64,000 bases of DNA from an uncultured Gammaproteobacteria bacterium (GCA_964345045.1 CAYFPM010000003.1:6038-70037); one strand, 5' to 3'. Counted from the first letter of the stretch, positions 7,980 through 46,320 are shown. Numbers and translations are program-made. The notes: generated from the sequence alone by a model not told the origin.

Positions 7980-8912
7980 CTACCCAATCCCCCACAATTC
8001 CTTCATCTGTTTTATCCCTTCTTCCAAATTAATCTTTGGCTCCCAGCCAAGCATTTCTTTGGCTCTGGTGTTGTCTGCTCTGGCATAGCGTGGATCTCCT
8101 GCTCTAGGATCTATGTTTGTAGTTGGTCCACCAATCAACTCAGCCAGTTGATTGACTGAGTATGGACTATTGTTTCCAATATTTATCATTTCCCCTTTGC
8201 CAACTTTGTCACTAGTCATAGCCAAGATATTGGCTTCTACAGCATCGTCTACATGAGTATAGTCACGGAAGTATTCTCCATCTCCACAAATAGTCATAGA
8301 TTCACCATTTTGCAATTGGCGCAAGAACTTGCCAATTACTAGGGCATAAGCTCCTTCCGGATCCATGTGCGGACCATAAATATTAAAATAACAAAGTGAA
8401 ACCGTTTCTAATCCATAAAGACTAGAAAAAAGTCGGCAGTATTCTTGACCAGCCAATTTTTGCAAAGCATAGGGGCTAAGCGGATTCTTCTTCATATTTT
8501 CTTTTAGAGCAATTGGTTCGTCTGATCCATAGACCGAAGAAGAAGTAGCAAATATAACTCTTTTTACTCCAGCATCTTTGGCAGAAAGAAGCACATTAAG
8601 AGTTCCATTCAAGTTGTGATCATTGGTAATATCCGGATGCTCAACAGAATAAGGTACCCGTGGCACAGCCGCTTCGTGAAAAACACCATCAACTCCTATT
8701 ACTGCTTTTTTGACATCTTCCAAATTTCTTATATCTCCTTCTATATATTCCACACCGTCAATTTTTCTTTCTGGAAATTTTTCAAAATCTCCAGCCGAAA
8801 AATTATCAAGCACGCGCACATCATGTCCGTCACGCTTTAATCTTTTTACAATGTTGGTACCGATAAACCCGGCACCGCCTGTTACTAAGTATTTCATATT
8901 TTTTTTAGTCAT
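7980..8912 (-). CDS. NAD-dependent sugar nucleotide epimerase (GalE/WbpP-like)
   Basis: MKYLVTGGAGFIGTNIV Rossmann motif, about 310 aa SDR-type epimerase. Confidence 0.8.
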   Translation of the reverse strand: MTKKNMKYLVTGGAGFIGTNIVKRLKRDGHDVRVLDNFSAGDFEKFPERKIDGVEYIEGDIRNLEDVKKAVIGVDGVFHEAAVPRVPYSVEHPDITNDHNLNGTLNVLLSAKDAGVKRVIFATSSSVYGSDEPIALKENMKKNPLSPYALQKLAGQEYCRLFSSLYGLETVSLCYFNIYGPHMDPEGAYALVIGKFLRQLQNGESMTICGDGEYFRDYTHVDDAVEANILAMTSDKVGKGEMINIGNNSPYSVNQLAELIGGPTTNIDPRAGDPRYARADNTRAKEMLGWEPKINLEEGIKQMKELWGIG

Positions 8913-8986
8913 ACTGAGCGGAGCGCAGCGGAGTCGAAGTATCCCGTTTATAACGAACGAGATCCTTCGCTAGCGCTCAGGATGAC
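8908..8986. repeat. MITE-like hairpin repeat with GTCAT(A/C)CTGAGCG terminal inverted repeats
   Basis: Left arm GTCATACTGAGCGGAGCGCAGCGGAGTCGAAG, right arm CCTTCGCTAGCGCTCAGGATGAC. Member of a family also present at 13035, 14023 and 46265. Confidence 0.5.
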
Positions 8987-9012
8987 TACACTTAAGACAA
9001 TTAATTTTCAAG

Positions 9013-10392
9013 TTATTTTATAAAAGGACTCCCCACCGCAATTATACCAAATCCGGCTTTTTGCAAATCATCGTACTTGTGTTGCAGCATTCTACGGCCA
9101 TCCATTAACAAAGTATTTGGTTTGGCGTGTTCTATAAGCAAATCTCCCAAACTACGAAATTGTGGCCAGTCGGTGGCTATTATTACTACATCGGCTTCGG
9201 CGATAGCTTCTTTTTCAGAGTTAGTATAAACCATTTTTTCTGACTCTGGAAAATTGTATTTGAAAAAATCCATAGCAGCCGGATCATAAGCTTGAATTTT
9301 TTTCACTCCCGAACCAAGCAAAATCTCGGCGATGTTTAAGCTTGGTGAGTTGCGAGTATCATTGGTATCTCGTTTGAAAGCTAGTCCAACCAAGGCTACG
9401 GTTTTGTCGCCCCACTCTATTCCGGCATCACGACCAGCTCTATCCAAAAAATTTTGCAATTGTCTTTTGTTGGCCCCATATGTTTCGTCTACAATCTCGG
9501 AATTTTTGCCAGCGTCACGCAATTGATGAGATAGGGATCTGGCATCTTTTATAAAACAGCTACCTCCGGCATAAAGACTATCATAAAATCCCCAATTACC
9601 AATTCTTTCATCACCAGTAATTATTTTACGAAGCTGTTCAAAATTTACATCGTCAAAAGCTTCGCTAGTGCGACCAATTACATCAAAACAAACGGCTAGT
9701 TTGTTGAAAAGATAAAAATTGGCCAACAGCTTACCGGCAGCAGATTCTTTTGGGTTTACTTCTAGATATTTTACAGTAGCCGAACTATAGAATCTGTCGT
9801 ATACGCCTCGCATTATGGCAAAATCTTTTTCACTCCAAGCTCCTACTACTACTCTGTCGGGACGAATGGAACCTTCTATAGCTTTGCCCTCTACCAAAAA
9901 TTCTGGGTTAGAAACTACACCATAATTTTTTACCCCCGCTTCGTCCATAATTTTGGCAGTTTGATCTACCATATCTATGGGCACGGTGCTTTTGTTTACT
10001 AGTACTACGTATTTTTCTTGGCTCCCATTATTTCTTTCTTTCAAAACTGTGGCCAATTGTTCGGCGGCTTTGTGATAGTATTCCAAATTGCTTTCGCCTG
10101 TCTCTCCAATTTCTGGAGTTGGCAAACACATAAAAATAGCATCAACATTGTCTAAAAAGGCTGTTACTTCCGAATAATCGGTAGTAAAACTAATGCGATC
10201 TTTGTGTCTTTGGAGTAGCTCTGCCAAACCTTCTTCGTAGATTACAGAATCTATTTGGTTTTTATCTCCCGAGCCTAATTTTTTTATTTTGTTTTCGTCT
10301 ATATCAAAAACCAAAGTAGTGTGTCCACTATCTGCAGACACAGCTGCCGAACAAGCGCCTACAAAACCAGATCCAATATATAAAATATTCAT
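9013..10392 (-). CDS. ugd: UDP-glucose 6-dehydrogenase
   Basis: MNILYIGSGFVGACSA N-terminal NAD fold and UDP-glucose/GDP-mannose dehydrogenase family length. The ORF in the track is extended upstream to 10566, but the ATG at 10392 matches the family N-terminus. Confidence 0.8.
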   Translation of the reverse strand: MNILYIGSGFVGACSAAVSADSGHTTLVFDIDENKIKKLGSGDKNQIDSVIYEEGLAELLQRHKDRISFTTDYSEVTAFLDNVDAIFMCLPTPEIGETGESNLEYYHKAAEQLATVLKERNNGSQEKYVVLVNKSTVPIDMVDQTAKIMDEAGVKNYGVVSNPEFLVEGKAIEGSIRPDRVVVGAWSEKDFAIMRGVYDRFYSSATVKYLEVNPKESAAGKLLANFYLFNKLAVCFDVIGRTSEAFDDVNFEQLRKIITGDERIGNWGFYDSLYAGGSCFIKDARSLSHQLRDAGKNSEIVDETYGANKRQLQNFLDRAGRDAGIEWGDKTVALVGLAFKRDTNDTRNSPSLNIAEILLGSGVKKIQAYDPAAMDFFKYNFPESEKMVYTNSEKEAIAEADVVIIATDWPQFRSLGDLLIEHAKPNTLLMDGRRMLQHKYDDLQKAGFGIIAVGSPFIK

Positions 10393-10750
10393 AATATAAA
10401 TGCTTGAAATGCCAAAAAAGCTAGAGAGGCTTTTAAGGCTTTTATGGGGGATACTATAGCAATTTGGATGTTTATTTTCAAGGGTTTTTGATAAATAGTT
10501 CTTGGTTCTTAGTTCAAAGTTATTAGTTAAGAGTACAGCTAAAATAATGCTAATTAGAAATTGCAACGGTCTCTGCCTTCGCTAGATTCACTATTACATA
10601 TTGCCAACTGCCTATACCCCAAAAAAACACGAAGGCCGGGCTGCTTTTTGCAACTCGGCCGGGCAGATACTGCCTTTCTCAGCATCTGCGCGTTTACCCA
10701 CTCACCTATGTCTACATCCGTTTTCACTATTTGCCCCTCCCAGAGCATGT

Positions 10751-11419
10751 TTACTCGTTGTCGTCTCCACCCAAAACCTCTACAAGTGGCACATCGCGAA
10801 CAGTGTCGGCCACTTGTACATCTAGTATCTCCGGGACTCCCGGGTCGGTCTGCACATCTGCCTCAAATGGCGGATGCAGCTCCTCGAGCCGACGACCTGG
10901 GACTGTATCCTTGTTCGCAGTCATTCTCCTCTGGGTTCTTCGGCTGGCACTGGCTAGCGGCCCTGGGTGCCGCTGGTCTGGCTCGGTGGTGCGCCTGGCT
11001 TGCCTAATTAGGAATTGAGCCAATTCTTCGTCTATGTCTGGGTCAAACCCTAGGCCCTCTCTATGGGGGGCTGGCGGGGCGACCAAACCAGGTGGTGCTT
11101 TGGCTTCTTCCATGTCACTTAGGATCTTGCCTAGCTCTGGAGCCGGGACAATATCTACAGGAGTGACCTCGCGCAAGTAGGGCGGCAAGCTGCTAGACTC
11201 TCTGGGCTGAGCCGGCATAGCCAAACCTTTGGCTAACTCTTGGGGCGAACTTGCATTCGCCCTGCCGACCATAGCCAGCGAGGTAAGCGCTGCCAAGAGA
11301 GCAACAACAGCTGTACCAATCAGGCTTTGTCGGCGAGATAGTACGCCGAGGAACCCTAGGGAAAGTATGGTGGCCAAAGCCACCAGTGTGGGTAACACTA
11401 GGAAACGCAATCTTTTCAA
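10751..11419 (-). CDS. GC-rich membrane-anchored proline-rich protein (unknown function)
   Basis: TTG start preceded by AAGGGAAG. Two N-terminal TM helices, then a Pro/acidic low-complexity tail. GC-rich codon usage unlike flanks. Confidence 0.45.
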   Translation of the reverse strand: MKRLRFLVLPTLVALATILSLGFLGVLSRRQSLIGTAVVALLAALTSLAMVGRANASSPQELAKGLAMPAQPRESSSLPPYLREVTPVDIVPAPELGKILSDMEEAKAPPGLVAPPAPHREGLGFDPDIDEELAQFLIRQARRTTEPDQRHPGPLASASRRTQRRMTANKDTVPGRRLEELHPPFEADVQTDPGVPEILDVQVADTVRDVPLVEVLGGDDNE

Positions 11420-11652
11420 AACGCTTCCCTTCCTTTCTCCACCATTTCGGTGGCCTAGGTATTCTTTGGCAAAAATAGCTAGGAGACAGAAATGGTGTGA
11501 ATTGTTACCTATTTTCAGTATGGCTTTATTTTTTCTTTTTTGTCAAGAGCTTTGGGCCAAAATATTGACTTTTGGCTAATTTTAGTGTAGGTTTCAAATA
11601 ATCTAGTTTGAGTAAAAAAGCTCAAACAGAAAGCTCTTTTGAGAGGTAAAAA

Positions 11653-12885
11653 GTGAAACTTACCATCACCAACCCCGACCACGCCTCCTACATCACCAGC
11701 CTCGACAACCAAAGATTCGCCGATGTACTCGTGGGAGAAGCCCCGAACATTCACTTCAACGATGGCAGGGCGGACAACCCGGTCATGCAGCTGTTGTGGA
11801 CAGATCCCCAGACTATCGTAGATATCTGCACCCTGGCCCTGCCCAAGGCAGAGCAAATGGAGACGTCCACCCACGTGAAACAAGAACGCCAGGCCGCCAT
11901 CTATGTATTGATGGTCGATGCATATCGGCGACTGTGGCAAGCAGAAACCTCTACTTCTAGGAAGATGTCTCTAGATGCGCAAGTCGCAGATATCTTCGAA
12001 AAAGCTCAGAGCCTGGTCGAGAAACTCGAGGAACACGATGTTGACAGAGCCAATAGGCTCACCGGATCTATGAATCACAACCGTATCCAGATGCTGGTTT
12101 CTACCGGCAAATACCTAGATGCTACCAAGCTCCACGACGAAAACGCTCGCCTCGCAAGAGAAGTGAATGATTTCCCCACCTTCGACCGAGAAGAACTTCG
12201 TGCCGCCGTACACGCCGCCAATCACCAACTGTGTTTTGGTGATCGCAGCGATATGGTCGGAGACCCAGACAGGTTGATAGATTGGGACTTGGCCGTACGC
12301 CAGGCTCAAGAGACAGCTCTGCATGTTGCAAGTCAATATGCAGACCAAGAAGAACACATCGCCATGGCCATCGAGGCACTTCTCTACGCTATTCGAATGG
12401 ACTGGTTGTCTAGGAGTGATCGCGACAACACGGCCTATATCCAACAAATCTCCGCCATGATGAGCGGGAACGAAGGCTTGCAAAAAGCCTTTGGCTGGAT
12501 GCACACGATCCTGGGGGCAGCCCAACTCATTCATTCCTTCAAGAATTGGGGGGAGGAGGTAATCGTTGAAGCCGAAAAAGCCATCGCCAGAATGAAGGAA
12601 ATCGGGGACAACGAAGATATCCCCATGCCCTACCGCACCGAAGCCATGCTCTGTATGGCGCAGCTGTCCAGCGCTCTAGGCCATTTCATCAGCCAAAACA
12701 GGTTCGGTTCCCATGGAGGCGCAACCATCCCCCAGTACCCGGACAGAATGCGGGCAGCCTACGAAGAAGCTGCCTCTATCCTACAGAAGCTCCAGAACCT
12801 GCAAGGTAGCCTGGCCTGGAAGGACGTAGCCACTATCATGGACAAGAGGCACCTCCCCAACGTACTCAAGTATTGCGCGGGATAA
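11653..12885 (+). CDS. GC-rich hypothetical alpha-helical protein (410 aa, no recognisable domain)
   Basis: GTG start preceded by GAGAGG. Long uninterrupted ORF in a GC-rich island, divergent from 10751..11419 across an AT-rich 230-bp spacer. Confidence 0.5.
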   Translation: MKLTITNPDHASYITSLDNQRFADVLVGEAPNIHFNDGRADNPVMQLLWTDPQTIVDICTLALPKAEQMETSTHVKQERQAAIYVLMVDAYRRLWQAETSTSRKMSLDAQVADIFEKAQSLVEKLEEHDVDRANRLTGSMNHNRIQMLVSTGKYLDATKLHDENARLAREVNDFPTFDREELRAAVHAANHQLCFGDRSDMVGDPDRLIDWDLAVRQAQETALHVASQYADQEEHIAMAIEALLYAIRMDWLSRSDRDNTAYIQQISAMMSGNEGLQKAFGWMHTILGAAQLIHSFKNWGEEVIVEAEKAIARMKEIGDNEDIPMPYRTEAMLCMAQLSSALGHFISQNRFGSHGGATIPQYPDRMRAAYEEAASILQKLQNLQGSLAWKDVATIMDKRHLPNVLKYCAG

Positions 12886-12993
12886 CATCAAAAAAGCAAC
12901 CTACCTCTCAACCGTTCTAAAGTTTAATTAGATTTAAATTTTTAGACCGGCCCCCTTCCCTTTGTTTATAAAAAATTTGTAACCAAAGGAAAA

Positions 12994-13026
12994 CAAAAAA
13001 CTACTGATATGTTCAGTAGTTTTTTG
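12994..13026. terminator. A-tract/hairpin/T-tract terminator (AAAAAACTACTGAtatgtTCAGTAGTTTTTTG)
   Basis: 8-bp stem, 5-nt loop, T6 run, about 110 nt after the stop of 11653..12885. Confidence 0.5.
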
Positions 13027-13034
13027 TTAGTAAA

Positions 13035-13207
13035 GTCATCCTGAGCGGAGTGAGTCTGAAAGACGAACACAGTCGATCCGATGCTTGCGATACGGATTCT
13101 CCGACGCAAGGTACGGAGTCCGTATTGAAACATCGGACCGTACTGTAAACGTCGGAAAGGATCCCGGTTGAAGTCCAAAGAGATTCTTCGCTAACGCTCA
13201 GAATGAC
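13035..13207. repeat. about 173-bp MITE-like element with GTCATCCTGAGCG / CGCTCAGAATGAC termini
   Basis: Terminal inverted repeats plus a highly self-complementary core (ccgatg...catcgg, atacgga...tccgtat). The core is the reverse complement of the core at 14023..14194. Confidence 0.55.
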
Positions 13208-13245
13208 TATAACTAATCAATCAGATTCTCACTACAACCTACCCC

Positions 13246-14016
13246 CTACTCACTAACAACATTCTTCGGATCTTCTCCCAAAGATTTGGTATAACCTTCG
13301 TTTCTGGTGTGGTGAGCATTGATCCCCTGCCATTCCGGATGAGCCAAACAAATACTAAGAACTTCGTTAAGTCCATAAAAACCACCTCGGGCTTCACAAC
13401 TTTCAATCAATAATCGCAAAAATTCAAAATCTTCCGGAGTATCCAAAGTCCAACGATGATTAGAAAAATCTTCTGTATTGGCTATATTAAAAAGTTTAAA
13501 CTTGTCCGGATGCTTCCAGATATAAGGCATTACGTGTTCACGCTCGGAATTAAGCTTGGCTTCTTTCCAAGCTTTTTCGAGGGCTGCAAAAGAAACCACC
13601 TCTGTATCAAGTCCATCTGGAAAAGTTGGTGGCTGAGTGTTTGATACATAATCATACTCCCCATCCAAAAAAGCTTGAATAACTCTATCTGTAACTTGCG
13701 GATCAAGCACCGGGCAATCTCCTGTAACACGCACAATTACATCGGCCTTGGACTGAATAGCAGCATGATAATATCTATCTAGCACATCTACCTCACTACC
13801 TCTATAATGTGGAATTCCTTTTTCTACTGCCCAATCGGCCAAAACATCGTCGGCATGGCTGGTAGTAGTAGCCAACCAAACATCATTTGCCAATCGAGAC
13901 ATTCTAGCTCTTTCTATCACGCGCTCTACTATGGGTTTGCCGGCTATGTCCATCATCATCTTACCTGGCAATCTGGTAGAGCCCATCCTGGCTTGAATTA
14001 TAATTACAACTTTCAT
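13246..14016 (-). CDS. CMP-nonulosonate cytidylyltransferase (NeuA/PseF/LegF, CTP_transf_3 family)
   Basis: MKVVIIIQARMGSTRLPGKMM N-terminal acylneuraminate cytidylyltransferase signature. Confidence 0.75.
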   Translation of the reverse strand: MKVVIIIQARMGSTRLPGKMMMDIAGKPIVERVIERARMSRLANDVWLATTTSHADDVLADWAVEKGIPHYRGSEVDVLDRYYHAAIQSKADVIVRVTGDCPVLDPQVTDRVIQAFLDGEYDYVSNTQPPTFPDGLDTEVVSFAALEKAWKEAKLNSEREHVMPYIWKHPDKFKLFNIANTEDFSNHRWTLDTPEDFEFLRLLIESCEARGGFYGLNEVLSICLAHPEWQGINAHHTRNEGYTKSLGEDPKNVVSE

Positions 14017-14022
14017 AAAAAA

Positions 14023-14194
14023 TTAATAAACAGTCATCCTGAGTCGCAGGTGAAGGATCCCAGTGGAAGTCCAAAGAGACCCTTTCCGACGTTTACAGTA
14101 CGGTCCGATGTTTCAATACGGACTCCGTACCTTGCGTCGGAGAATCCGTATTGCAAGCATCGGATCGACTTCGCTGTGCTTCGCTCAGGATGAC
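14023..14194. repeat. about 172-bp MITE-like element, inverted copy of 13035..13207
   Basis: GTCATCCTGAGTCGCAG ... CTTCGCTCAGGATGAC termini. The core ccgacgtttacagtacggtccgatgtttcaatacggactccgtaccttgcgtcggagaatccgtat matches the reverse complement of the 13035 copy almost exactly. Confidence 0.55.
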
Positions 14195-14195
14195 T

Positions 14196-15509
14196 CTAGG
14201 TTAGACGTTTAAACCCACTATGAGCCACAGGGCCTTCCAGCATTTCTTCTACTTTATTATTTTCAATCGCATCTTTCAAGAGGGCAAATACTTTGTCGAC
14301 TGTATCTAAAAATTTCTTTACGTGTTCTTCTTTGTGAGCATAACTAACATATACCGAGGCCGAAGCTAGTATGCCGCGTTTCAACATTTCTTGGGTATAA
14401 AGAGTTCTTATCTCTTGTCTGTTTTCATAATCAAAAAGAAACGTTACCAAAGCCGGTGGCCCCATAGTAGTAATTTTTAGACCATGTTTTTCGGCAAGTT
14501 TGTCCCAACCTTCCCAAATCATATTACCAATTTTTTCAATATGTTCTGGCACATTTTCTTTTTCTAATTTTTTTATAGTGGCAAGGGCCGCTACTGGGCC
14601 AATACGTTCGGTCCAATAAGTACTGCTAATAAAAGTATTTTGTGAAGCATCCATCACCTCGCTATTACCAATTACAGCCGACATAGGGAAACCATTGCTC
14701 ATACCTTTGGCAAAAACAGCTATGTCTGGTTCGACTCCATAAACTATATGCATTCCTCCTACATTTTTGCGCCAAGCAGAAGTTACTTCGTCAAAAATCA
14801 AAACAGCTCCAATTTTGTCTGCAATCTGTCGCACCTTTTGTAAGAAATCATTTTCTGGTTCATTGTGACGCACTGGCTCCATTACAATCACCCCAATATC
14901 ATTATTTTCTTTTACAATTTCTTCTAATTGTTCGATCTTATTATATTCAAAAGGTACTGCCGAACCATGTAATCCACGTACCACGCCTTTTGGTTCGAGC
15001 CCCGGGATAAGATGTCCGTCCAGGTTACTGTCGGAGGCTAGATTACTAGCCAAGTACCAATCATGCCAACCATGATAACCACAAAAAGCCACAGTACCTT
15101 TGCCACTTTTGGCTCGACCAATACGCACGGCAATAGACAAAGCTTCACCACCAGTTCTGGCATAGCGCACCATACTAGCCCAGGGGTGCAGTTCAATTAG
15201 CTTTTCGGCTAGGTCTACTTCTTCCGGGCAGTTAAGAGTTGTCATACTTCCCCGCTCTATCGCATCTACCACAGCCGCATTTACATCTGGATCGGCATAG
15301 CCCAGCACACAAGACCCAATCCCCATGTAAGACATGTCCATATAAGTATTACCATCCATATCTGTTACTTCACAACCTTTGGCATCGGTGTAGTAAGCTG
15401 GCCACTGGTCTGGCAAAAACATTTCTGCTCGTTTGGACAAAAGTTGTGATCCTCCCGGCAAAATCTTTTTGGCTTCTTGCCAACGTTTTAGGGTTTTTTC
15501 TCTACTCAT
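14196..15509 (-). CDS. class III PLP aminotransferase (glutamate-1-semialdehyde aminomutase-like)
   Basis: GSA-AT-like length and motifs (YTDAKGCEVTDMDGNTYMD; FDEVTSAWR). Confidence 0.8.
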   Translation of the reverse strand: MSREKTLKRWQEAKKILPGGSQLLSKRAEMFLPDQWPAYYTDAKGCEVTDMDGNTYMDMSYMGIGSCVLGYADPDVNAAVVDAIERGSMTTLNCPEEVDLAEKLIELHPWASMVRYARTGGEALSIAVRIGRAKSGKGTVAFCGYHGWHDWYLASNLASDSNLDGHLIPGLEPKGVVRGLHGSAVPFEYNKIEQLEEIVKENNDIGVIVMEPVRHNEPENDFLQKVRQIADKIGAVLIFDEVTSAWRKNVGGMHIVYGVEPDIAVFAKGMSNGFPMSAVIGNSEVMDASQNTFISSTYWTERIGPVAALATIKKLEKENVPEHIEKIGNMIWEGWDKLAEKHGLKITTMGPPALVTFLFDYENRQEIRTLYTQEMLKRGILASASVYVSYAHKEEHVKKFLDTVDKVFALLKDAIENNKVEEMLEGPVAHSGFKRLT

Positions 15510-15516
15510 AAAAAAA

Positions 15517-18531: not shown

Positions 18532-18532
18532 A

Positions 18533-20515: not shown

Positions 20516-20521
20516 ACCTAC

Positions 20522-20818
20522 CTAACTTTTTGTACTCAAATAAGTTTTTAAAGCTTTCTTAATATATTGTCTACCCCAACCAATTTTAAAAAATTTTTCT
20601 CGTGCTTTTGCGTCCTCTTTATGAGAATAGGCTTCATAGTAAACTAACTTAAATGGTCTTCTTGGTGCAGTAAAAAAACTCTTTCCTTCATTGTGCTCAA
20701 CAGATCTTCTTTGTAGATCATTAGTATAACCTGTATAAAAATTACTATCTTTCATACTCTCTAAAATATAAACATAATACATACAAATGTACAAAACGTT
20801 AGACGGGATAATCAACAA
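20522..20818 (-). CDS. GIY-YIG nuclease-domain small protein
   Basis: YVYILESMKDSNFYTGYTNDLQRRSVEHNEGKS matches the GIY...YIG...R...E...N core. It is wedged between, and overlaps, the hisF-like and hisH-like genes. Confidence 0.6.
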   Translation of the reverse strand: MLIIPSNVLYICMYYVYILESMKDSNFYTGYTNDLQRRSVEHNEGKSFFTAPRRPFKLVYYEAYSHKEDAKAREKFFKIGWGRQYIKKALKTYLSTKS

Positions 20819-23784: not shown

Positions 23785-23787
23785 AAT

Positions 23788-38380: not shown

Positions 38381-38629
38381 CTAAAACTGTCGATAATACT
38401 CACCAATTTTTTTCTTTTTCAAATCAAAATCTTGCCAGTAGGTATCTGATTCTTTATCTAGTTTGGTTTTTAAAAACTTTTTTTTGAATAGTTTGGCCAG
38501 TACGGTTGTAATTCCAACTCCCAAAAAATAAACAACAGACAACAGTACAGAATTAACAAAAACTGCGATTGACTTGGCAAATAATTCCATGCCCTTTCTA
38601 AATTCTTTTAATATCTGCTTAAAGTTCAT
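38381..38629 (-). CDS. small membrane protein co-transcribed with carbamoyltransferase (SxtJ-like association)
   Basis: 82 aa with one TM; the call rests on position only. Confidence 0.3.
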   Translation of the reverse strand: MNFKQILKEFRKGMELFAKSIAVFVNSVLLSVVYFLGVGITTVLAKLFKKKFLKTKLDKESDTYWQDFDLKKKKIGEYYRQF

Positions 38630-38632
38630 AAC

Positions 38633-38827
38633 TTACAAAACTTCTTCTTTTAACCAATACCCCACAGCCGCAATTATGGCTGTAATAATAGCCAAGTCAT
38701 AAATATCCCAAGTTTGTGGCAGCTTGTCCAAAAAAGTAAGGATAAAATAAAGTACTGTAGTAAAAATCAAATATCCAAACAAAAAACCAATTCCATTTGT
38801 AAAACTTAATCTTGATTTTGTATTCAT
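38633..38827 (-). CDS. small two-TM membrane protein
   Basis: 64 aa hydrophobic; tightly packed between a GT2 and the carbamoyltransferase operon. Confidence 0.3.
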   Translation of the reverse strand: MNTKSRLSFTNGIGFLFGYLIFTTVLYFILTFLDKLPQTWDIYDLAIITAIIAAVGYWLKEEVL

Positions 38828-38828
38828 A

Positions 38829-39677
38829 CTAACTTTTTTTGAAAAGTGAAGCTAAAAATCCCAAACTCAAAAAAGCCAGACCAACAAAAAAGAAAGTCAA
38901 AGCTACTACAATGGTCCCAAGAGAATGAACCATAACTCCTAGAACAAAAAAAGCCAAAGCTGCTAAAAATGGGAAAAAAGACAAAAGTAAAAATAGCTTA
39001 ATCGGGTTGTACCTAGCAATAATCTCTACCATGATTTGCATGGTACGCAAAGAATCTTGAAAATATCTTACCTTAGATTTTCCTTTTCTAACTTCGTAAT
39101 TAATTGGTACATATTTTACAAAGTAGTGTTTCAAAAAGAAAATCAGAGTTGAAGAAGTTGTAAAAGAAAATTTATTGGAAAGTTCTGGTAAGTGCGGTTT
39201 GATTACACTTTTTCTAATTACTCGAAATCCAGAATTAATATCTGGAATTCTATTACCTACCACAAACTCACTCATTATTTTGAAAAAAAATCTAGCGATT
39301 CTTTTGGTTAGGTTTGGGATATAAGCTCTACCTTGTCTCGCACCTACTACCATATCTATCCCTTTGTCAAATTCACTAACTAACTTTGGGATATCTGCTA
39401 TTGGGTAAGTTGCATCAGCATCTGTAATTACCACACATTCGTTTTGGGCAGCCTCTATTCCTCGTTTCAAAGAAAAACCATATCCCATGTTGACTGGGTT
39501 ATTTATAACTTTGGCTTGATAATCTTTGGCTATTTCTTCTGTTTTGTCTAGAGAAGCATCGTTAACTACAATCACTTCAAAATCTCTATCTATCAATACA
39601 GACTTTAATTTTTCCAAAACTTCAGCAATACCTTTTTCTTCGTTGTAGGCCGGGATCACAACCGAAACATTAGTCAT
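38829..39677 (-). CDS. family-2 glycosyltransferase with C-terminal TM segments (Dpm1/GtrB-like)
   Basis: VSVVIPAYNEEKGIAEV ... VVNDASLD ... ITDADATY. Confidence 0.8.
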   Translation of the reverse strand: MTNVSVVIPAYNEEKGIAEVLEKLKSVLIDRDFEVIVVNDASLDKTEEIAKDYQAKVINNPVNMGYGFSLKRGIEAAQNECVVITDADATYPIADIPKLVSEFDKGIDMVVGARQGRAYIPNLTKRIARFFFKIMSEFVVGNRIPDINSGFRVIRKSVIKPHLPELSNKFSFTTSSTLIFFLKHYFVKYVPINYEVRKGKSKVRYFQDSLRTMQIMVEIIARYNPIKLFLLLSFFPFLAALAFFVLGVMVHSLGTIVVALTFFFVGLAFLSLGFLASLFKKS

Positions 39678-39680
39678 AAT

Positions 39681-41096
39681 TTAATTCTTAATATTTCTCT
39701 TATATAAGCGAAGTTTACAGGTTTCTATAAAAAATTCAAGGCCAAACCCCAAGAGTAAAAATAAGGCTGGAAAAGATGGCATACGGTAACGTACATGGCT
39801 GGCCGGCCCCAAGGTAAGGAGGATAAAATACAAAGAAAGTGCTACTAATAAAACTAACTTGTAACCATACTTTTGCCAATTGTTTTTGTTTGCAAAACTA
39901 AAGAGTATGAGTAGATAAATAAGTGACCAAAGAGCCAAACTAAAAAATAAAATAGCTTGAAAGATATCAAATTTCTTAAAAACATTTATCAAGCCAAGAG
40001 GCCCTTTGGTTAGCAGTGTTTCTGTATAACTCACCCGCGCTATTTTTCTTTCTACTCCCATTACATCTTCCAGTATATATTCATACCCTGTTCCTAGCAT
40101 AGCTGGCACAGCCGAAACTGTATAAAATTTGGCAACAGACAAAGGATCTTTTTTTATAATTTCTTTGGTTTCTTCTACTAGTTCATCGTAGTATTTAAAA
40201 TTATTTATAACATCTTCGTATCTGTAATCTGGAGTTCGTTCTACAAATCTTTGCCAATGCAGTTTGGCAGCATCTATGTAACCCAAATTTTCTTCTTTCA
40301 TTACAACTATTGGCGCTACCCTGGCAAAAAGCATAAACGAATCAATGTTTGTAATTTTGCTTCTACCAAAAGTTTGTTCTTGTCGCAAAAGCCATGGAGA
40401 CAAAACTAATACAAAAACCAAAAGCAGTACAAATGTATGAAAAACAAATTTTTGCCAATCTCTAACTTGAAATAACAAATATCTGATTGCCAAAAGTATA
40501 ATTATAAATATTGGCAAATACAAAGCTACAGGTCTTGTAAGTACCAACAAACCAAGCAATACTCCGGAAATTATTATGTCTTTGCAATTTTTTGTTTGTG
40601 AATAGTAACGACCAAAAAAATAAATAAATAAAATTAGTAAAAAATTAAAGAATGTCTCGGTAGTAGCCAAAACAGCAGTCATAAGCATGTATGGCTCGAA
40701 AATATAAATAAGACCTACAAGCTTACCAACTCGCTCTGAAAAAAACATTTTGCCAATTTGATAAAGCAAAACAGCAGAAAAGCTAGCCAAGATATTTTGT
40801 AAAATTATAATTGCCCAAATATCTGAACCGGGTATTAATTTGGCCAATACCAAAAATATAGGATAAAGCGGTGTCCGATAAGCACTAGGCATTCCATCTC
40901 TGCTAAAGCCTTCGCCAATAAGCAAACTATCTGCCAAGTTCAAATAACTATGGGCATCCTCGTTTTCAAACCACAAAATTGATTCACCAAATTTTTGGTA
41001 TAGAAAAATGCTTACTAAAAGATGAATTAAAAAAGAAGCTACAAAAATTTTGGTAGCAAATTGGTGTTGTTTTAAAAAATCTTTAATCTTATTCAT
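39681..41096 (-). CDS. GT-C fold membrane glycosyltransferase (PMT_2/ArnT-like), paralogue of the N-domain of 60042..62681
   Basis: FENEDAHSYLNLADSLLIGEGF ... RTPLYPIFL closely parallels GNSDTHGYLSLAENIAKGNGF ... RTPLYPLYL in the other protein. Confidence 0.55.
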   Translation of the reverse strand: MNKIKDFLKQHQFATKIFVASFLIHLLVSIFLYQKFGESILWFENEDAHSYLNLADSLLIGEGFSRDGMPSAYRTPLYPIFLVLAKLIPGSDIWAIIILQNILASFSAVLLYQIGKMFFSERVGKLVGLIYIFEPYMLMTAVLATTETFFNFLLILFIYFFGRYYSQTKNCKDIIISGVLLGLLVLTRPVALYLPIFIIILLAIRYLLFQVRDWQKFVFHTFVLLLVFVLVLSPWLLRQEQTFGRSKITNIDSFMLFARVAPIVVMKEENLGYIDAAKLHWQRFVERTPDYRYEDVINNFKYYDELVEETKEIIKKDPLSVAKFYTVSAVPAMLGTGYEYILEDVMGVERKIARVSYTETLLTKGPLGLINVFKKFDIFQAILFFSLALWSLIYLLILFSFANKNNWQKYGYKLVLLVALSLYFILLTLGPASHVRYRMPSFPALFLLLGFGLEFFIETCKLRLYKRNIKN

Positions 41097-41097
41097 T

Positions 41098-41907
41098 TTA
41101 TTTTTTCAAAACGGCAGTAGAACCATACCCAAAATTACGCATAATTGACCATGCTCGCATTTTGTCTAAAAATTTTACAAACGGCAAAAGAGAAACAAAA
41201 AATGGTAGACAAATAGTACTGGCTTCGAAATGTTCTAACTTAAAACCAACTTTTCTAAAATGTCTTTTCATTACCCAAGGATAACGGAATATATGGATAA
41301 GATCTTTGTTCCCTACATAACCTTCGTTGGCTCCTTCGCCAAATATGCCAAACAAAATTTTGAAAAATCCCCAAGGAATAGCGAGCAATGATCTTTTGGA
41401 TTTTTCCCAAAAACTACCATGACCAACTTGGATCATGCTACACAGATTAAGCGCAGAAGGAAGTGCAATTACTGCTTTTTTCTTGGTAACTCTATAAACT
41501 TCTCTCAAACCTTTGTGAAAATCTGGCAGATGCTCTAGCACATGAGAACTAACAACGGCATCAAAACTATTGTCGGGAAAAGCCAAATTTTCGGCATCGC
41601 CTACCATAAAATTGGTTTTGTCTTCTACTCCCCAATCTTTGGCCAACTTCTTGGCAGCCTCTATATTTGGAGCAGATATATCTACCCCGGTTACTTCTAT
41701 CCCCTCTTTGGCCAAAAGGCAAGACAAAACTCCATCACCACAACCCGCATCTAGCACCATTTCACCTTTGTAAATTTGTCTAATTACAGATTGGTATTGC
41801 GATATATGCGCATAACGACGCAACGCATTTTTCGAAGCAAACCGCTTGTCATGAATATGGTCAGCGTATTTGGTATAAATTTCTTTGTTGTCTTTTGTCT
41901 GAGGCAT
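41098..41907 (-). CDS. class I SAM-dependent methyltransferase with C-terminal hydrophobic tail
   Basis: VLDAGCGDGVLSCLLAKEGIEVTGVDIS motif I. The track ORF starts at a TTG two codons upstream of the ATG. Confidence 0.75.
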   Translation of the reverse strand: MPQTKDNKEIYTKYADHIHDKRFASKNALRRYAHISQYQSVIRQIYKGEMVLDAGCGDGVLSCLLAKEGIEVTGVDISAPNIEAAKKLAKDWGVEDKTNFMVGDAENLAFPDNSFDAVVSSHVLEHLPDFHKGLREVYRVTKKKAVIALPSALNLCSMIQVGHGSFWEKSKRSLLAIPWGFFKILFGIFGEGANEGYVGNKDLIHIFRYPWVMKRHFRKVGFKLEHFEASTICLPFFVSLLPFVKFLDKMRAWSIMRNFGYGSTAVLKK

Positions 41908-41920
41908 AAGCAAGTTGTTC

Positions 41921-41937
41921 CTCCCCTATTAGGGGAG
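41921..41937. repeat. CTCCCCTATTAGGGGAG palindrome (left boundary of DUF559 cassette)
   Basis: Identical to the palindrome at 7842..7859. Confidence 0.5.
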
Positions 41938-41951
41938 GTTAGGAGGGGTCC

Positions 41952-42338
41952 TTATATAGATAAATTTTTTATATAAAAGATTATATCATTAATAACATTA
42001 TCAAGCTCGTATTTAATTTGTTCATTCCTGTATCTCAAAACAAAATATCCGTTTTGTTGTAAATATTTTTGTCTAATTATATCTTTCTTTTTATTTTCTT
42101 TTTCTGCATGTATGTACCCATCTATTTCTATTATCAATTTCAACTCATGAGAATAAAAATCTACAATATAATAATCAATGTTAAACTGTCTTCTAAATTT
42201 AACCCCCAGTTGTTTTGCTTTTAATTTATACCACAATATTTTTTCCGCTTCAGTTTGACAAGTTCTTAGACACCTTCTTCTTTTTTTAAAAGATGCTTTA
42301 TTCTGGTAACGACCGATTGATTTCATATTGACCCCCAC
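41952..42338 (-). CDS. DUF559 (Vsr/Mrr-like restriction-endonuclease-fold) protein
   Basis: TEAEKILWYKLK ... FRRQFNIDYYIVDFY ... LIIEIDG ... RQKYLQQNGYFVLRY matches the DUF559 layout. Confidence 0.6.
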   Translation of the reverse strand: MGVNMKSIGRYQNKASFKKRRRCLRTCQTEAEKILWYKLKAKQLGVKFRRQFNIDYYIVDFYSHELKLIIEIDGYIHAEKENKKKDIIRQKYLQQNGYFVLRYRNEQIKYELDNVINDIIFYIKNLSI

Positions 42339-42341
42339 TTA

Positions 42342-42360
42342 CTCCCCCTGATAGGGGGAG
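42342..42360. repeat. CTCCCCCTGATAGGGGGAG palindrome (right boundary of DUF559 cassette)
   Basis: Near-identical to TCTCCCCCTAATAGGGGGAGA at 7938..7958, including the preceding CCCCCxCTxxxCT context. Confidence 0.5.
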
Positions 42361-42362
42361 AA

Positions 42363-43523
42363 TTAACTTTTACTCTTATAATTCTCTATAATCTGTTTAA
42401 TTGTTACATCCCAACTAAACGTAGACATAACTTTGTTGTAACTAGCTTCACCAAATTCTTTTCTTTTTTCTTCATTTGAGAGCAACTCATTAACTTTGTC
42501 AGCCAAATTTTGTTTCCTTTCTTCACTTGTATCCATTGGGGCATCATAATCAGAATTTTCCCAATCAACTAGTTTCACCAGATAGCCCGTTTTGTTATCT
42601 TCTACCATTTCCAAATAACCACCAACTCTACTGGCAACAAGTGCTTTTTTCATAGCCATAGCCTCTAGACAAGCCAAACTGGTTGATTCGGCAGTAGAAG
42701 GAAAAACCACAACTTTGGCCAAAGATAAATAACCTGGAACCAGTTTGTTTTCTACTTTTCCAACAAAATCAAAATGTTTTCTTACTCCCAATTCTTCTGC
42801 TCTTTGTTTGAGATATTCTTCTAATTGACCATAACCAACCAAGACAAATTTTACATCTTTGTTTTTTTCTACAATTTTTGGGCTAGACTCTACCAAAAAT
42901 TGTATTCCATTTTTAGGAACCAATCTTCTTACAGTCAAAACAACTTTGTTGTCTTTGTATTTTTCTTCCAAATCAGTTGGTATTTCGGTCTTTTGAAAAG
43001 TTTCTAGATCAACGGCATTTGGAATATACTTAATCTTTTTTTCACTAGTATATTTTTTGGCAATGTCTACAAAATCTTGGCAAGAAGCAATTATATAATC
43101 GGAAACTTTTAGCGAAAACCATCTGTAAAAACTATGTACCAATCCATAAACAAAATTATTTCCAGGTAGATCAAGAATACCTCTTCCCTGCAAAGTTATG
43201 GCAAATGGTTTTTTCTTGAAAATATTATAAATCCCGGCGTAAGCAGCAAACTTGTGCGAATATACTGCATGGATTATATCGACTTCGTCCAAAAACTTTT
43301 TAAGTTCTTTATAAAATTTAATCTTGCCTTTTAGCCCTTTGCCAAAATCTACTCTGGTGGTATTGAAATCATCCTGGTAATCTTTGGTGTTTTTTTCGTC
43401 TAGTGTAAACACACTTACTTCATAACCACTTTTTTGTAGATACTTGGCCAAATTGTAGGCATAAACTTCTGCTCCCCCAATTCTTGGCAAATACCAATCA
43501 ATTACAATTCCTATTTTTTTCAT
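42363..43523 (-). CDS. family-4 (GT-B fold) glycosyltransferase
   Basis: Glycos_transf_1 layout; a C-terminal domain with an EAMAMKKALVAS-type motif. Confidence 0.8.
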   Translation of the reverse strand: MKKIGIVIDWYLPRIGGAEVYAYNLAKYLQKSGYEVSVFTLDEKNTKDYQDDFNTTRVDFGKGLKGKIKFYKELKKFLDEVDIIHAVYSHKFAAYAGIYNIFKKKPFAITLQGRGILDLPGNNFVYGLVHSFYRWFSLKVSDYIIASCQDFVDIAKKYTSEKKIKYIPNAVDLETFQKTEIPTDLEEKYKDNKVVLTVRRLVPKNGIQFLVESSPKIVEKNKDVKFVLVGYGQLEEYLKQRAEELGVRKHFDFVGKVENKLVPGYLSLAKVVVFPSTAESTSLACLEAMAMKKALVASRVGGYLEMVEDNKTGYLVKLVDWENSDYDAPMDTSEERKQNLADKVNELLSNEEKRKEFGEASYNKVMSTFSWDVTIKQIIENYKSKS

Positions 43524-43525
43524 AC

Positions 43526-44479
43526 TTACTTTATATTATTTTCCTCAAACCATTTTATAGTTTTTTTTAAATTACTTTCCAAATCATGACTAGGATTGTA
43601 ATCAAAATCTTCTTTTGCTTGGTCAATATCTGCCAAGCGACGACTAATATGATCCCAGCTCCGTCTATCTTTATACTCTATATTAGCTTGATTATTTGTT
43701 AATTTATTAATAGTCTCGGCAAGCTCCTTTATAGTTACTTCCTGTCCCGAGCCAATATTATATATCTTTCCTTTACTTTTGTCAGATGAGGCTGCCAAAA
43801 TTGTACCTTCTACTGTATCTTCTATATAGGTAAAATCTCTTGTTTCACTGCCATCACCAGTAATTATCAAAGGTTTGCCAGACTTTGCCAAAGCAACAAA
43901 ATTGGGGATTACGTTTCTATACTGCCCGGGTCTCTCGGCCGGTCCATAAGAATTGAAATAACGCAATACCACAGTATTCAAACCATGATGATCATGAAAA
44001 AACTTGGTGTAATGTTCTCCTAATAATTTGCTAATAGCATAGGGAGTATCCAAGTTTCCAGGATTGTTTGATTCTTTCAAAGCTCCTTCGGCATTGCCAT
44101 ATACACAAGAAGAAGAAGCATAGACAAATTTGTCTACTTTTTTTTCTATACATTTTTGCAAAATTTTTAGTGTTCCGAATCCATTGGTTTGCAAATCTTT
44201 TTCGGGGTGGTCTACTGAATTTTGATTGGCAAAATGAGCTGCCATGTGAAAAACAATATTTATTCCATTTTCAAAAGCTTTTGCCAAGGTAGCATCATCG
44301 GCTACTGAACCCCGAACAAAGTTTACTTTGCTTTCATCTATATTTTCCAAAAAACCAGAACTAAGATCGTCTACAACTACAACCTCGCTAGGTTTGTACT
44401 CAAACAATCTATTTACCAAACGACTACCAATTGCTCCAGCCCCGCCCGTCACAAGTATTTTTTTGTTTTCTAATTGCAT
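43526..44479 (-). CDS. NAD-dependent sugar nucleotide epimerase/dehydratase
   Basis: KKILVTGGAGAIGSRLVNRL ... YASSSCVYG ... YAISK catalytic Tyr-Lys. The start is taken at ATG 44479 rather than the extended ORF. Confidence 0.8.
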   Translation of the reverse strand: MQLENKKILVTGGAGAIGSRLVNRLFEYKPSEVVVVDDLSSGFLENIDESKVNFVRGSVADDATLAKAFENGINIVFHMAAHFANQNSVDHPEKDLQTNGFGTLKILQKCIEKKVDKFVYASSSCVYGNAEGALKESNNPGNLDTPYAISKLLGEHYTKFFHDHHGLNTVVLRYFNSYGPAERPGQYRNVIPNFVALAKSGKPLIITGDGSETRDFTYIEDTVEGTILAASSDKSKGKIYNIGSGQEVTIKELAETINKLTNNQANIEYKDRRSWDHISRRLADIDQAKEDFDYNPSHDLESNLKKTIKWFEENNIK

Positions 44480-44480
44480 A

Positions 44481-45035
44481 TTACAAATATTTTTCCCAAT
44501 CATTAACAATATTTTTATAAAAATCTTGCACAATTTCCTTACTTTTATCAAACTTTAACTTTTTTATTTTGTCTAGTTTTCTTTGCATATCTTTTTTTGC
44601 ATTTCTATTCAACGCCCAAACTCTGTATGCTTCATAAAGTTTTTTGTCAGCATAAAAAGAAATAATATCTGCATCTTCAATTATTTCTGCTTCAATTGAG
44701 TTTACGTTACCTGTAAAAAAATTTTTCAATAATTCTGATTGATAGTCTTTTAGATTTAAAGAATTTACAAAATCCTCACAAACCACCCAAGCCAACTCTG
44801 CATGTCTTTCTTTTAAAGTTTCTTCATCTGCTTCATAAGTTTTACCAATATCATGAAGAAGTCCTCCTATAATTAATATTTCCTTATCACATTTCATTGC
44901 TTCAGCAATTTTTTCAGATAATTCGGCTACTTTTAAACTATGGTTATACATGATTGTCCAGTCATCAAAACTATAATGTGGTTTCTCTTCAAATGCCTTT
45001 TTTATATAGTCTCTTGTTTTTTCTATGTTACTCAT
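44481..45035 (-). CDS. HD-domain phosphohydrolase
   Basis: IIGGLLHDIGKT HD motif. Confidence 0.55.
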   Translation of the reverse strand: MSNIEKTRDYIKKAFEEKPHYSFDDWTIMYNHSLKVAELSEKIAEAMKCDKEILIIGGLLHDIGKTYEADEETLKERHAELAWVVCEDFVNSLNLKDYQSELLKNFFTGNVNSIEAEIIEDADIISFYADKKLYEAYRVWALNRNAKKDMQRKLDKIKKLKFDKSKEIVQDFYKNIVNDWEKYL

Positions 45036-45037
45036 AA

Positions 45038-46252
45038 TTATTCCCCCAACAAATAATAATCCGAGTCTAATTTCCTATTACTCCACAAATTCTTGGTATC
45101 AAAAATCCATTTTTGTTTGGACAAATCAATTTCTTTGTAAACATCATGATCGGTTACCACTACAATCCCCTCTGCTTTTTGCAAAAACTCTTCAAGTGAA
45201 ATAAGTTCGTGTGCAAAATTTTCTACCAAAGCATCTGTTACCACAACCTCGAAACCTTTTTCTTCTAAACCTTTTATAATAGTCGTGGCCGGAGTTTCGC
45301 GAGAATCATCTACATTTTTTTTGTAAGCTACTCCCAAAACACCAATTGTTTTACTATCGTGTTTGTTGGCAATATCACTCACCTTCTCTACAATTTTTTG
45401 TGGTTGATTATCGTTTATATTTCTACTATTTGTAATAAGCTTGGAAACACTTTCGTTGCCAGCAGTAAGAAACCAAGGATCAATAGCAATACAATGTCCA
45501 CCTACGCCAGGACCTGGGGTATGTACATTTACTCTAGGATGTTTGTTGGCAAGCTCTATTAATTCCCACACATTCGTGCCAAATTTTTCTGCCAAATCTG
45601 CCAATTCGTTGGCAAAAGCAATATTTATATCACGATAAGTATTTTCTACCAACTTTACCATCTCCGCGGTTTTGCAGTCTGTCAAAAACATTTCTCCTTT
45701 TACAAAAGATGAATACAGCTCTTTGGTAGCGTTTTGACTTTTTTGATCTATACCACCAATAATACGATCATTGTTTATCATTTCGTCTATAGTATTGCCC
45801 GGGATAGCTTTTTCCGAAACATAGGCCAAATCAAAATCTTCTCCTGCCTGAAGATTATTTTGTGCCAAAATTTTTCCCAAAACATTTTCTGTTGTTCCCG
45901 GGGCTACGGTTGATTCCAAAATTACCAAATTTCCTTTTTTCAAAATTGAGAGCAAAGCTTCACCAGCTTTTTTTATATAACTATCATCACAAGTTTTGTC
46001 TGTTTTTACTGGAGTAGGTACCGCAATTACAAAGACTTCTGCCTCGCTTAAACTAGTAGTAGGTGTAAAATTTGTTCTTGCTTCTGCAAACAATTCTTTC
46101 ATTCCAACCTCTTCAAATGGAAGTTCCCCTTTTTGCAAAGTATTTATTTTGTTTTCATCAATATCATAACCAAAAACCTTGTGACCATTTTTGGCCAAGA
46201 GTAAGGCTGTTGGCAAACCAATATAACCAAGTCCAATTACACAAACTTTCAT
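45038..46252 (-). CDS. wecC: UDP-N-acetyl-D-mannosamine dehydrogenase-like (UDP-sugar dehydrogenase family)
   Basis: MKVCVIGLGYIGLPTALLLAKNGHKV; located directly downstream of the wecB-like gene in the same operon. Confidence 0.7.
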   Translation of the reverse strand: MKVCVIGLGYIGLPTALLLAKNGHKVFGYDIDENKINTLQKGELPFEEVGMKELFAEARTNFTPTTSLSEAEVFVIAVPTPVKTDKTCDDSYIKKAGEALLSILKKGNLVILESTVAPGTTENVLGKILAQNNLQAGEDFDLAYVSEKAIPGNTIDEMINNDRIIGGIDQKSQNATKELYSSFVKGEMFLTDCKTAEMVKLVENTYRDINIAFANELADLAEKFGTNVWELIELANKHPRVNVHTPGPGVGGHCIAIDPWFLTAGNESVSKLITNSRNINDNQPQKIVEKVSDIANKHDSKTIGVLGVAYKKNVDDSRETPATTIIKGLEEKGFEVVVTDALVENFAHELISLEEFLQKAEGIVVVTDHDVYKEIDLSKQKWIFDTKNLWSNRKLDSDYYLLGE

Positions 46253-46264
46253 AGTTTAATAGTA

Positions 46265-46320
46265 TTCATCCTGAGCGTCAGCGAAGGATCTCTTCGGACT
46301 AAGGCTAGGATATTTCTTCC
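46265..46320. repeat. partial copy of the GTCATCCTGAGCG repeat family
   Basis: TCATCCTGAGCGTCAGCGAAGGATCTCTTCGGAC shares the left terminus and GAAGGATC core; no matching right arm. Confidence 0.35.

Follow-up and report, generated by a model that had tools for sequence, protein, structure and literature searches.

We analyzed a stretch of 64,000 nucleotides (nt) from the genome of an uncultured Gammaproteobacteria bacterium (GCA_964345045.1, CAYFPM010000003.1:6038-70037), hereafter the window. The window comprises a long minus-strand polysaccharide and nonulosonic-acid operon encoding NeuB, a formyltransferase, an oxidoreductase, a class-III aminotransferase, a cytidylyltransferase, UDP-glucose dehydrogenases, epimerases and glycosyltransferases. 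Dispersed among these genes are short repeats with inverted termini, the main subject of this work, each consisting of two oppositely oriented units (arms) that face each other across a spacer of 14-25 nt and together form a doublet. Five doublets, a free-standing GIY-YIG nuclease gene and a DUF559 nuclease gene with hairpins of its own are all found in this single surface-glycan operon, and every repeat element occupies an intergenic spacer or a 3' untranslated region. An initial annotation had regarded the repeats as similar to MITEs (miniature inverted-repeat transposable elements) bounded by terminal inverted repeats (TIRs), and had proposed that the two long copies give the cytidylyltransferase gene between them a setting like that of a composite transposon or an invertible cassette.

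Repeat elements in the window

The terminus GTCATCCTGAGCG, with at most two mismatches allowed, occurs at seven sites in the window (8908+, 8986-, 13035+, 13207-, 14033+, 14194- and 46265+), compared with 0.30 expected, and none of 100 shuffled sequences yielded seven. The seven GTCATNCTGAG arms make up four elements, three doublets and one decayed copy (Table 1). With a profile derived from 330 arms that belong to other genomes, we recovered the same seven window arms and no others at E<1; the dispersed family with common termini that had been noticed initially is real. As for the individual copies, the limits 8908-8986 and 13035-13207 hold, the start given as 14023 moves to 14033, so that this copy is 162 bp long and not 172, and the copy at 46265, initially taken as partial, has one intact arm (46265-46290) and a decayed partner extending to about 46341. 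The fifth doublet (29558-29645) was absent from the earlier list.

Table 1. Coordinates of the repeat elements and of selected genes in the window
Feature	Coordinates	Strand	Description
Doublet C, basal	8908..8986	none	79 bp; arm 8908-8943 (+), 17-nt spacer, arm 8961-8986 (-)
Long doublet A	13035..13207	none	173 bp; giant left arm 13035-13163 (+), spacer, right arm 13182-13207 (-)
Core of A	13062..13160	+	long imperfect palindrome at the apical P2 position of the left arm
CMP-sugar synthetase (cytidylyltransferase) gene	13246..14016	-	PF02348; bracketed by A and B
Long doublet B	14033..14194	none	162 bp; left arm 14033-14059 (+), spacer, giant right arm 14078-14194 (-)
Core of B	14081..14170	-	in the arm opposite to that of the A core; 98.9% identical to it
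Free-standing single-domain GIY-YIG gene	20522..20782	-	86 aa; between GATase and HisF-like genes
Sister doublet	29558..29645	none	88 bp; termini GTCATTGCGAG...CTCGCAATGAC; P1 ATTGC/GCAAT
DUF559 (PF04480) endonuclease-like gene	41952-42338		128 aa; in block 41916-42377
Doublet D, decayed	46265..46341 (end approximate)	none	intact left arm 46265-46290 (tag TTC), spacer, A+T-eroded right arm

Doublet C separates a gene of the UDP-glucose dehydrogenase family from an epimerase gene. Within 8897-8912, the ATGAC terminus of this element provides the epimerase open reading frame (ORF) with an in-frame upstream ATG; the true start is likely the ATG at 8897, and gene callers may run the protein into the repeat. 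The long doublets A and B indeed flank the NeuA-family gene, the minus-strand PF02348 ORF at 13246-14016, as had been stated. Doublet A is located in the 3' untranslated region, with the cytidylyltransferase stop codon on one side and a bidirectional terminator (12992-13028) on the other, and doublet B fills the gap from the aminotransferase stop codon (14196-14198) to the cytidylyltransferase start codon (14016). The eroded right arm of doublet D overlaps the stop codon of a UDP-GlcNAc 2-epimerase gene, and the sister doublet is found between a DUF4910 gene and an aminoglycoside-acetyltransferase-like gene.

Arm anatomy and covariation

The arm has the structure 5'-(A/T)GTC-P1-GAG-P2-CGA-P1'-C-3', where P1 is a strand of 5 nt, usually ATNCT, and P2 is variable. 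It folds into helix P1, followed by a tandem G·A/A·G internal loop and by helix P2, which is closed by a G-C pair and is commonly CG-NN-AG, which gives two pairs with a GNNA loop, or GCGAAGC. The terminal inverted repeats are self-folding hairpins in their own right, each preceded by a tag. The tag is AGTC in six of the seven window arms and ATTC in the seventh, and GTC is present in 247 of 252 arms of other genomes; all window arms finish in ...AT C or ...GT C. In doublet C, the left arm has an extended P2 and the P1 pair ATACT/AGTAT, and the right arm has ATCCT/AGGAT. The right arm of A (P1 ATTCT/AGAAT) and the left arm of B are of normal size; their giant counterparts, with P2 of 112 nt in the left arm of A and of 100 nt in the right arm of B, retain intact P1 and tag. 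The sister doublet is built alike, its P1 variant being compensated throughout, and its DNA folds have z scores of -3.0 and -2.8.

Among arms outside the search query, the P1 pairs were ATCCT/AGGAT (43), ATTCT/AGAAT (24), ATGCT/AGCAT (8), ATCCC/GGGAT (3) and GTCCT/AGGAC (2). In the arms of loci that were fetched through protein similarity (see below), for which the variant of the 5' half played no part in choosing the 3' half, position 3 of P1 was C-G in 118 arms, T-A in 115, G-C in 19 and A-T in 2, compared with 9 non-pairs; P1 was perfectly paired in 219 of these 263 arms, and GAG/CGA changed jointly to GAA/TGA. The window arms alone contain C-G, T-A and A-T at position 3, and overall, P1 covaries across all four Watson-Crick pairs. 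The pairing is held within an arm and not between the arms of a doublet. Because the two arms of doublet C differ (ATACT and ATCCT), yet each is internally paired, selection acts on the single arm and not on a long inter-arm hairpin. The minimum-free-energy fold of canonical arms consists of P1 plus P2.

Loops of P2 have the form GNNA or GNA; the middle positions accept any base, and GNYA is frequent. Mini-hairpins of the d(GNA) and d(GNNA) types are known for DNA, and GNRA is what would be expected of RNA tetraloops. The loop statistics hence seem to fit a DNA hairpin better than an RNA hairpin.

Distribution and association with GIY-YIG nuclease genes

The exact 25-mer TCATCCTGAGCGNNAGCGAAGGATC was searched in a collection of species-representative genomes and found in at least 120 stretches. 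Far from being restricted to the copies listed initially, the family is present in more than 15 bacterial phyla among the matches listed, the hosts in these matches being Acidobacteriota, Chloroflexota, Patescibacteria, Bacillota, Cyanobacteriota, Alpha-, Beta- and Gammaproteobacteria, Bacteroidota, Planctomycetota, Omnitrophota, Verrucomicrobiota, Nitrospinota, Cloacimonadota, Synergistota, Bdellovibrionota and others. The 25-mer also occurs in 8 contigs of a viral collection. In other genomes, the arms are arranged as doublets of 57-400 bp, as tandem arrays of doublets (loci L004, L053 and L023), or behind stutters of 5' half-arms.

In the latter arrangement, a complete arm comes immediately after a run of three to seven half-arms that recur every 22-31 nt or so (as in GTCATCCTGAACGAAGCCCTTT) (L065, 666-822; L181, 1187-1299; L196, 1494-1621 and 4838-4961; L110, 4987-5056). 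These runs look as if they were stuttered by repeated cutting and repair, or by slippage, at the tag, and we found no description of them in PMC11893778 or PMC3733652, the two reports discussed below. The 87-nt tandem arrays of L004 and L053 were also considered as CRISPR arrays, which we rejected: each unit is a complete palindromic doublet and the "spacers" are near-identical.

All-against-all clustering of the ORFs in 128 loci that were anchored on the DNA repeat revealed one small recurrent family, single-domain GIY-YIG proteins (PF01541) of 93-101 aa, and with tblastn, such a gene was detected inside or beside the arms in seven of the 128 loci. In L067 (274-667), L127 (1745-2123) and L128, the layout is arm-gene-arm. 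The reverse test started from the proteins: 80 metagenomic loci were fetched by alignment of arm-flanked proteins, with no DNA criterion. Arms lie within 400 bp of the gene in 68 of these 80 loci and on both sides of it in 54, and arms number 4.4 per kb close to the gene compared with 0.29 per kb beyond 1 kb, a 15-fold local enrichment. In the commonest layout (32/80), the gene has an arm on the sense strand upstream of it and one on the antisense strand downstream, the median gaps being 48 and 37 nt. Genes for ABC ATPases, which also appeared enriched near arms, were discarded as a candidate partner, given the size of the ABC superfamily, identities of 25-33% and no positional link.

A system of this kind has been described by Chenal et al. 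(Nat Commun 2025, PMC11893778), in which the NTS repeats of Neisseria (CGTCATTCCCGCGMAVGCGGGAATCYRG) and related hairpins (Ssn-related motifs, SRM) flank single-domain GIY-YIG Ssn genes (94 aa, cd10448). SsnA binds the hairpin solely as single-stranded DNA (ssDNA), and its cleavage site lies 5' of the GTC tag, at a distance of a few nucleotides; neither double-stranded DNA (dsDNA) nor RNA is a substrate. The three bases (GTC) ahead of the stem govern cutting, the C after the stem governs binding, and the loop can be removed or extended (PMC11893778). The arm-flanked proteins contain Tyr, Tyr and Glu residues collinear with Y6, Y17 and E64 of SsnA (NMB0047), compared by published positions, and we found no model in NCBIfam that discriminates these proteins.

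The long copies and their shared core

The long copies A and B are reverse complements of one another over 119 nt (13071-13189 and 14052-14170) at 90% complementarity, and their inner 90-nt core is 98.9% identical when inverted (blastn). The inversion applies only to the apical core: the spacers match at 23 of 27 positions in direct orientation compared with 16 of 27 in inverted orientation, and the scaffolds without P2 at 62 of 77 compared with 53 of 77, so that scaffolds and spacers are direct. A and B are ordinary doublets, one arm of each carrying an apical hairpin of 100-112 nt. A single type of core occupies the left arm of A and the right arm of the like-oriented B, which implies that the core moved between arms, either by arm-to-arm copying (conversion) or by insertion targeted to one fixed position in the arm, behind CGAAG. 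Alternatively, the spacer could have been flipped in a hairpin intermediate, a choice that two copies cannot make. No relatives of the core were found by blastn of the 128 loci, in two viral scans or in a metagenome scan with both basal stems, and its open frame, searched in a protein database so as to catch spurious ORFs, had no match; so far, the core is known from this genome only.

The core is highly structured, as had been noted. The RNA folds of a long copy reach -72.6 and -78.6 kcal/mol on the two strands, far below those of shuffled sequences (z -5.6 and -8.1), and the giant left arm of A folded as DNA reaches -27.3 kcal/mol (z -3.95). This stability favors the suggestion of the initial annotation that the core could be a structured RNA; under this reading, the core or the entire doublet would function in the operon transcript (in processing, stability or regulation, or as a small RNA), its behavior as a DNA repeat being secondary. 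All copies are indeed located in transcribed spacers or the 3' untranslated region of the minus-strand operon, with A upstream of a terminator, and REP-type hairpins (repetitive extragenic palindromes, REPs) are well established to stabilize upstream mRNA (Di Nocera, De Gregorio and Rocco, BMC Genomics 2013, PMC3733652). However, no Rfam family matched in the window at the gathering score, only chance-level matches being obtained at permissive E-values for the elements and five related loci; the two cores are in opposite sense relative to transcription, so that the transcripts would carry complementary cores; the P2 loops are GNNA or GNA, often GNYA, rather than GNRA; and the tag is a conserved single-stranded element, the published enzyme acting on ssDNA and leaving RNA unbound. 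Two near-identical cores, moreover, allow no covariation test. Thus, the stable folding stands and the role as an RNA is improbable. CUGAG...CGAAG was also considered as a hammerhead-like ribozyme, a reading that fails for lack of the N7-G8-A9 core positions and of any Rfam match.

Insertion into a resident operon

We compared the operon with its closest relatives, in which the aminotransferases are 75-78% identical to that of the window. Three relatives without elements have the aminotransferase gene next to the cytidylyltransferase gene and in the same orientation, with junctions of 3, 6 and 16 nt among L214, L216 and L217, compared with 179 nt, filled by B, in the window. Likewise, the dehydrogenase-epimerase junction spans 18 nt in L217 and about 100 nt, with C, in the window, and in L217, the GATase and HisF-like genes, which in the window enclose the free-standing GIY-YIG gene, are adjacent and 4 nt apart without such a gene. 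Because these junctions are tight and empty in the relatives, the elements and the GIY-YIG gene at 20522-20782 have been inserted, whereas the cytidylyltransferase gene belongs to the operon as a resident and is not cargo.

We also fetched six contigs of the source metagenome (PRJEB17505, four runs), all 100% identical to the window where overlapping. The cytidylyltransferase gene with both elements is spanned by two of these; another breaks off within that gene, another within element B, and a further one overlaps the window elsewhere; no rearranged contig was present among the six. Independent assemblies of the source metagenome (L131, L132 and L133) end inside or beside elements (window positions 12766, 14122 and 13889), which suggests that the repeats are multi-copy in the source genome. 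No transposase or recombinase was detected among the neighboring ORFs scanned, and a promoter and terminator scan showed no excess within the elements.

These observations bear on the proposal that A and B mobilize or flip the cytidylyltransferase gene, resulting in phase-variable CMP-sugar synthesis. The 119-nt inverted repeat brackets exactly one gene and is, in principle, long enough for RecA-dependent inversion, and this gene acts on a surface glycan, a typical target of phase variation. However, the gene was in place before the elements arrived around it, as the three relatives indicate; the inversion between A and B is limited to the apical core; no recombinase accompanies the copies in the ORFs scanned; the two source contigs that span the segment are not rearranged; and copies C, D and 29558 bracket no single gene. 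We therefore abandon the composite-transposon or invertible-cassette setting as very unlikely, although rare RecA-mediated inversion across the 90-nt cores may occur.

[quoted passage not shown] From the MITE-like TIR family of the initial annotation, the gene-less repeats with inverted termini in spacers remain, but the termini are hairpins and not the transposase ends of a known insertion sequence.

Interpretation

We conclude, with a probability of roughly 0.78, that the window elements are doublets without a gene, formed from a tagged DNA hairpin of the SRM/NTS or CGTC-REP type, which elsewhere encloses GIY-YIG genes. Judging from sequence and layout, they appear to be miniatures of an arm-gene-arm unit enclosing a single-domain GIY-YIG nuclease gene of about 95 aa. 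By analogy with Neisseria, an Ssn-type enzyme would recognize and nick the arms in their single-stranded state, whether during replication or in incoming DNA, and such nicking could underlie the spread of the arms. The apical insert of 100-112 nt sits where the published enzyme tolerates extensions. DNA of the NTS-gene-NTS form transforms less well (PMC11893778); the bracketing of the cytidylyltransferase gene may mimic this arrangement, which in Neisseria lowers integration of transforming ssDNA. The hairpins may also affect the polycistronic mRNA.

Several observations weigh against this interpretation. First, no consistent target-site duplication was found around the window copies, and no mobility event was seen. 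Second, the energy of a single arm folded as DNA (nearest-neighbor parameters) is marginal, -3 to -4 kcal/mol with z of -1 to -2; the single-arm energies being weak, the case for the hairpin rests on covariation. Third, the core is known in two copies only, and its history is ambiguous. Fourth, the published SRM string, HGTCWYN(0-2)YYVSBRHN(0-5)WNVSBRGN(0-2)RNCYNB (PMC11893778), matches none of the seven window arms owing to the G·A internal loop, its sole match in the window being an unrelated CCCCT hairpin at 7935-7962; among the 80 protein-anchored loci, the string is matched in 2, and G·A-type arms are present in 65. Fifth, there is no arm-flanked ssn gene in the window, and the free-standing GIY-YIG gene has no arms around it and is 6.3 kb away from the nearest element. 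That gene is also nearer to UPF0213 (YhbQ-like) proteins, with E=3e-10 for 1zg2 compared with 0.0047 for the arm-flanked type, and its close relatives, mostly from Patescibacteria, are near arms only occasionally.

Strict SRM membership by the published string thus fails, and in other respects, the arms appear, by analogy, to resemble SRM/NTS in their working. The two loci that match the string bear Neisseria-type NTS arms (TGTCATTCCCGTGAAAACGGGAATCCAG), and because of these, the clade of arm-flanked proteins can be tied to the published family. In sequence terms, the G·A-loop arms appear to form a separate, common class of tagged hairpin that exists beside the NTS type. Since the string is matched in so few of the 80 loci, string-based surveys would undercount such elements.

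The free-standing GIY-YIG gene of the window shares 39-42% identity with the arm-flanked proteins, with the common motif REK...K.GW.R. With no arms and a UPF0213-like sequence, it is not established as the cognate enzyme; it is a candidate partner at best, and the cognate gene may lie beyond the window. Many homologs of this gene are found on very short contigs, as is the case for multi-copy genes. In L219 (1380-1790), a GIY-YIG gene of the same clade is located at the 3' end of a tRNA gene, with the 13-bp GGGTTCCCGACCA on both sides of the insert.

The consequence for this locus is that it no longer appears as a gene-carrying transposon or a phase switch but takes a place among the ssDNA hairpin-GIY-YIG systems that shape recombination. 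Beyond the published descriptions in PMC11893778 and PMC3733652 go the G·A class, its breadth and the core common to opposite arms. In its common environmental form, the hairpin has a conserved tandem G·A loop and a second helix and is missed by the published string; an arm can hold more than 100 nt at its apex, with the same insert in either arm, which bears on how the elements are copied; and a Patescibacteria-like surface-glycan operon has been colonized repeatedly, splitting gene pairs that are tightly adjacent in relatives.

A further-reaching possibility, which we put forward tentatively and consider rather unlikely at present, is that the G·A-loop arm represents a distinct unmodeled class of Ssn-type hairpin, the dominant partner of a large GIY-YIG clade that environmental bacteria of more than 15 phyla share, and an active mobile unit. 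Under this equally tentative scenario, arm-gene-arm units and miniature doublets would spread by nuclease-triggered arm-to-arm copying, and the core of A and B would be a cargo transfer caught in the act. Chenal et al. likened the NTS-ssnA-NTS unit to an insertion sequence (PMC11893778); if the scenario were true, this idea would become a testable new class of GIY-YIG-driven ssDNA mobile elements.

A possible second nuclease-hairpin unit and compositional blocks

CCCCT..AGGGG hairpins lie on either side of the DUF559 endonuclease-like gene, at 41916-41950 and 42330-42366. Both of these hairpins recur without a gene at 7839-7863 and 7928-7973, with a third copy at 61212-61236. This gene and its hairpins look like a second, independent selfish nuclease-hairpin unit with its own miniature derivative.

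In a window of otherwise 33-38% G+C, three blocks are at 50-56% (6000-8000, 11000-13000 and 50000-53500). The first two contain ORFs with no or weak family matches, including a MopE-motif protein (6493-7650) and an ORF of 410 aa on the opposite strand (11653-12885), and the third is a gene for an M23 peptidase of 1337 aa, whose internal repeats are 654 and 561 nt apart.

Comparison with known systems

A literature search by sequence string returned chance primer matches only. We compared the elements with four published types of system by their organization.

The first is the SRM/NTS system with its Ssn nucleases. In common with it, the window-type arm has an unpaired HGTC tag, a stem starting A-T, T-A, a trailing C and a loop tolerant of extension; the copies are dispersed in the hundreds and cluster around genes; and single-domain GIY-YIG genes of about 94-101 aa are flanked by inverted copies in the manner of NTS-ssnA-NTS. 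In contrast, the window-type stem is broken by the tandem G·A loop (GAG...CGA) and continues into a second, variable helix, the window arms are paired closely with no gene between them, an apical hairpin of 100-112 nt is present in one arm of each long copy, and no cognate ssn gene was identified within the window.

The second comprises the CGTC-tagged REPs described by Di Nocera et al., in which the tag is CGTC or TGTC/CCTC, the stem of 8-9 bp starts with A-T, T-A, the loop has 4-5 nt, and the tail is CCA (PMC3733652). These REPs, which include dRS3 of Neisseria and RPE-4 and RPE-6 of Rickettsia, are mostly paired in opposite orientation, have no dedicated transposase, flank no RAYT, and are mainly alphaproteobacterial in range (PMC3733652). 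The window arms share with them the GTC-type tag, a stem of about nine positions starting with A-T, a short loop (the 4-nt GNNA), the pairing in opposite orientation, the location between co-directional genes and the absence of a RAYT partner. They differ in the tag, AGTC or ATTC, in the tail, CTC or CCC instead of CCA, in the two G·A mismatches of the stem and the variable length of P2, and in a host range (a Patescibacteria-like source, Acidobacteriota, Chloroflexota, Bacillota and others) far wider than that reported in 2013.

The REPINs and BIMEs associated with RAYTs are likewise built from two inverted hairpin units with a spacer, which together make a larger hairpin, and are non-autonomous copies of a unit with a nuclease gene; in both cases, the intermediates are probably single-stranded. 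However, their tag is GTAG and their enzyme an HUH/Y1 nuclease, whereas the window type combines GTC with GIY-YIG, and REPs are usually species-specific, whereas the window arm is near-identical across phyla.

Finally, the free-standing GIY-YIG homing endonuclease genes, such as seg of phage T4, offer a likeness in that a small nuclease gene is placed precisely between conserved genes. Homing endonucleases carry DNA-binding domains and cut dsDNA, whereas the arm-flanked type is a single-domain protein and its associated sites are ssDNA hairpins.

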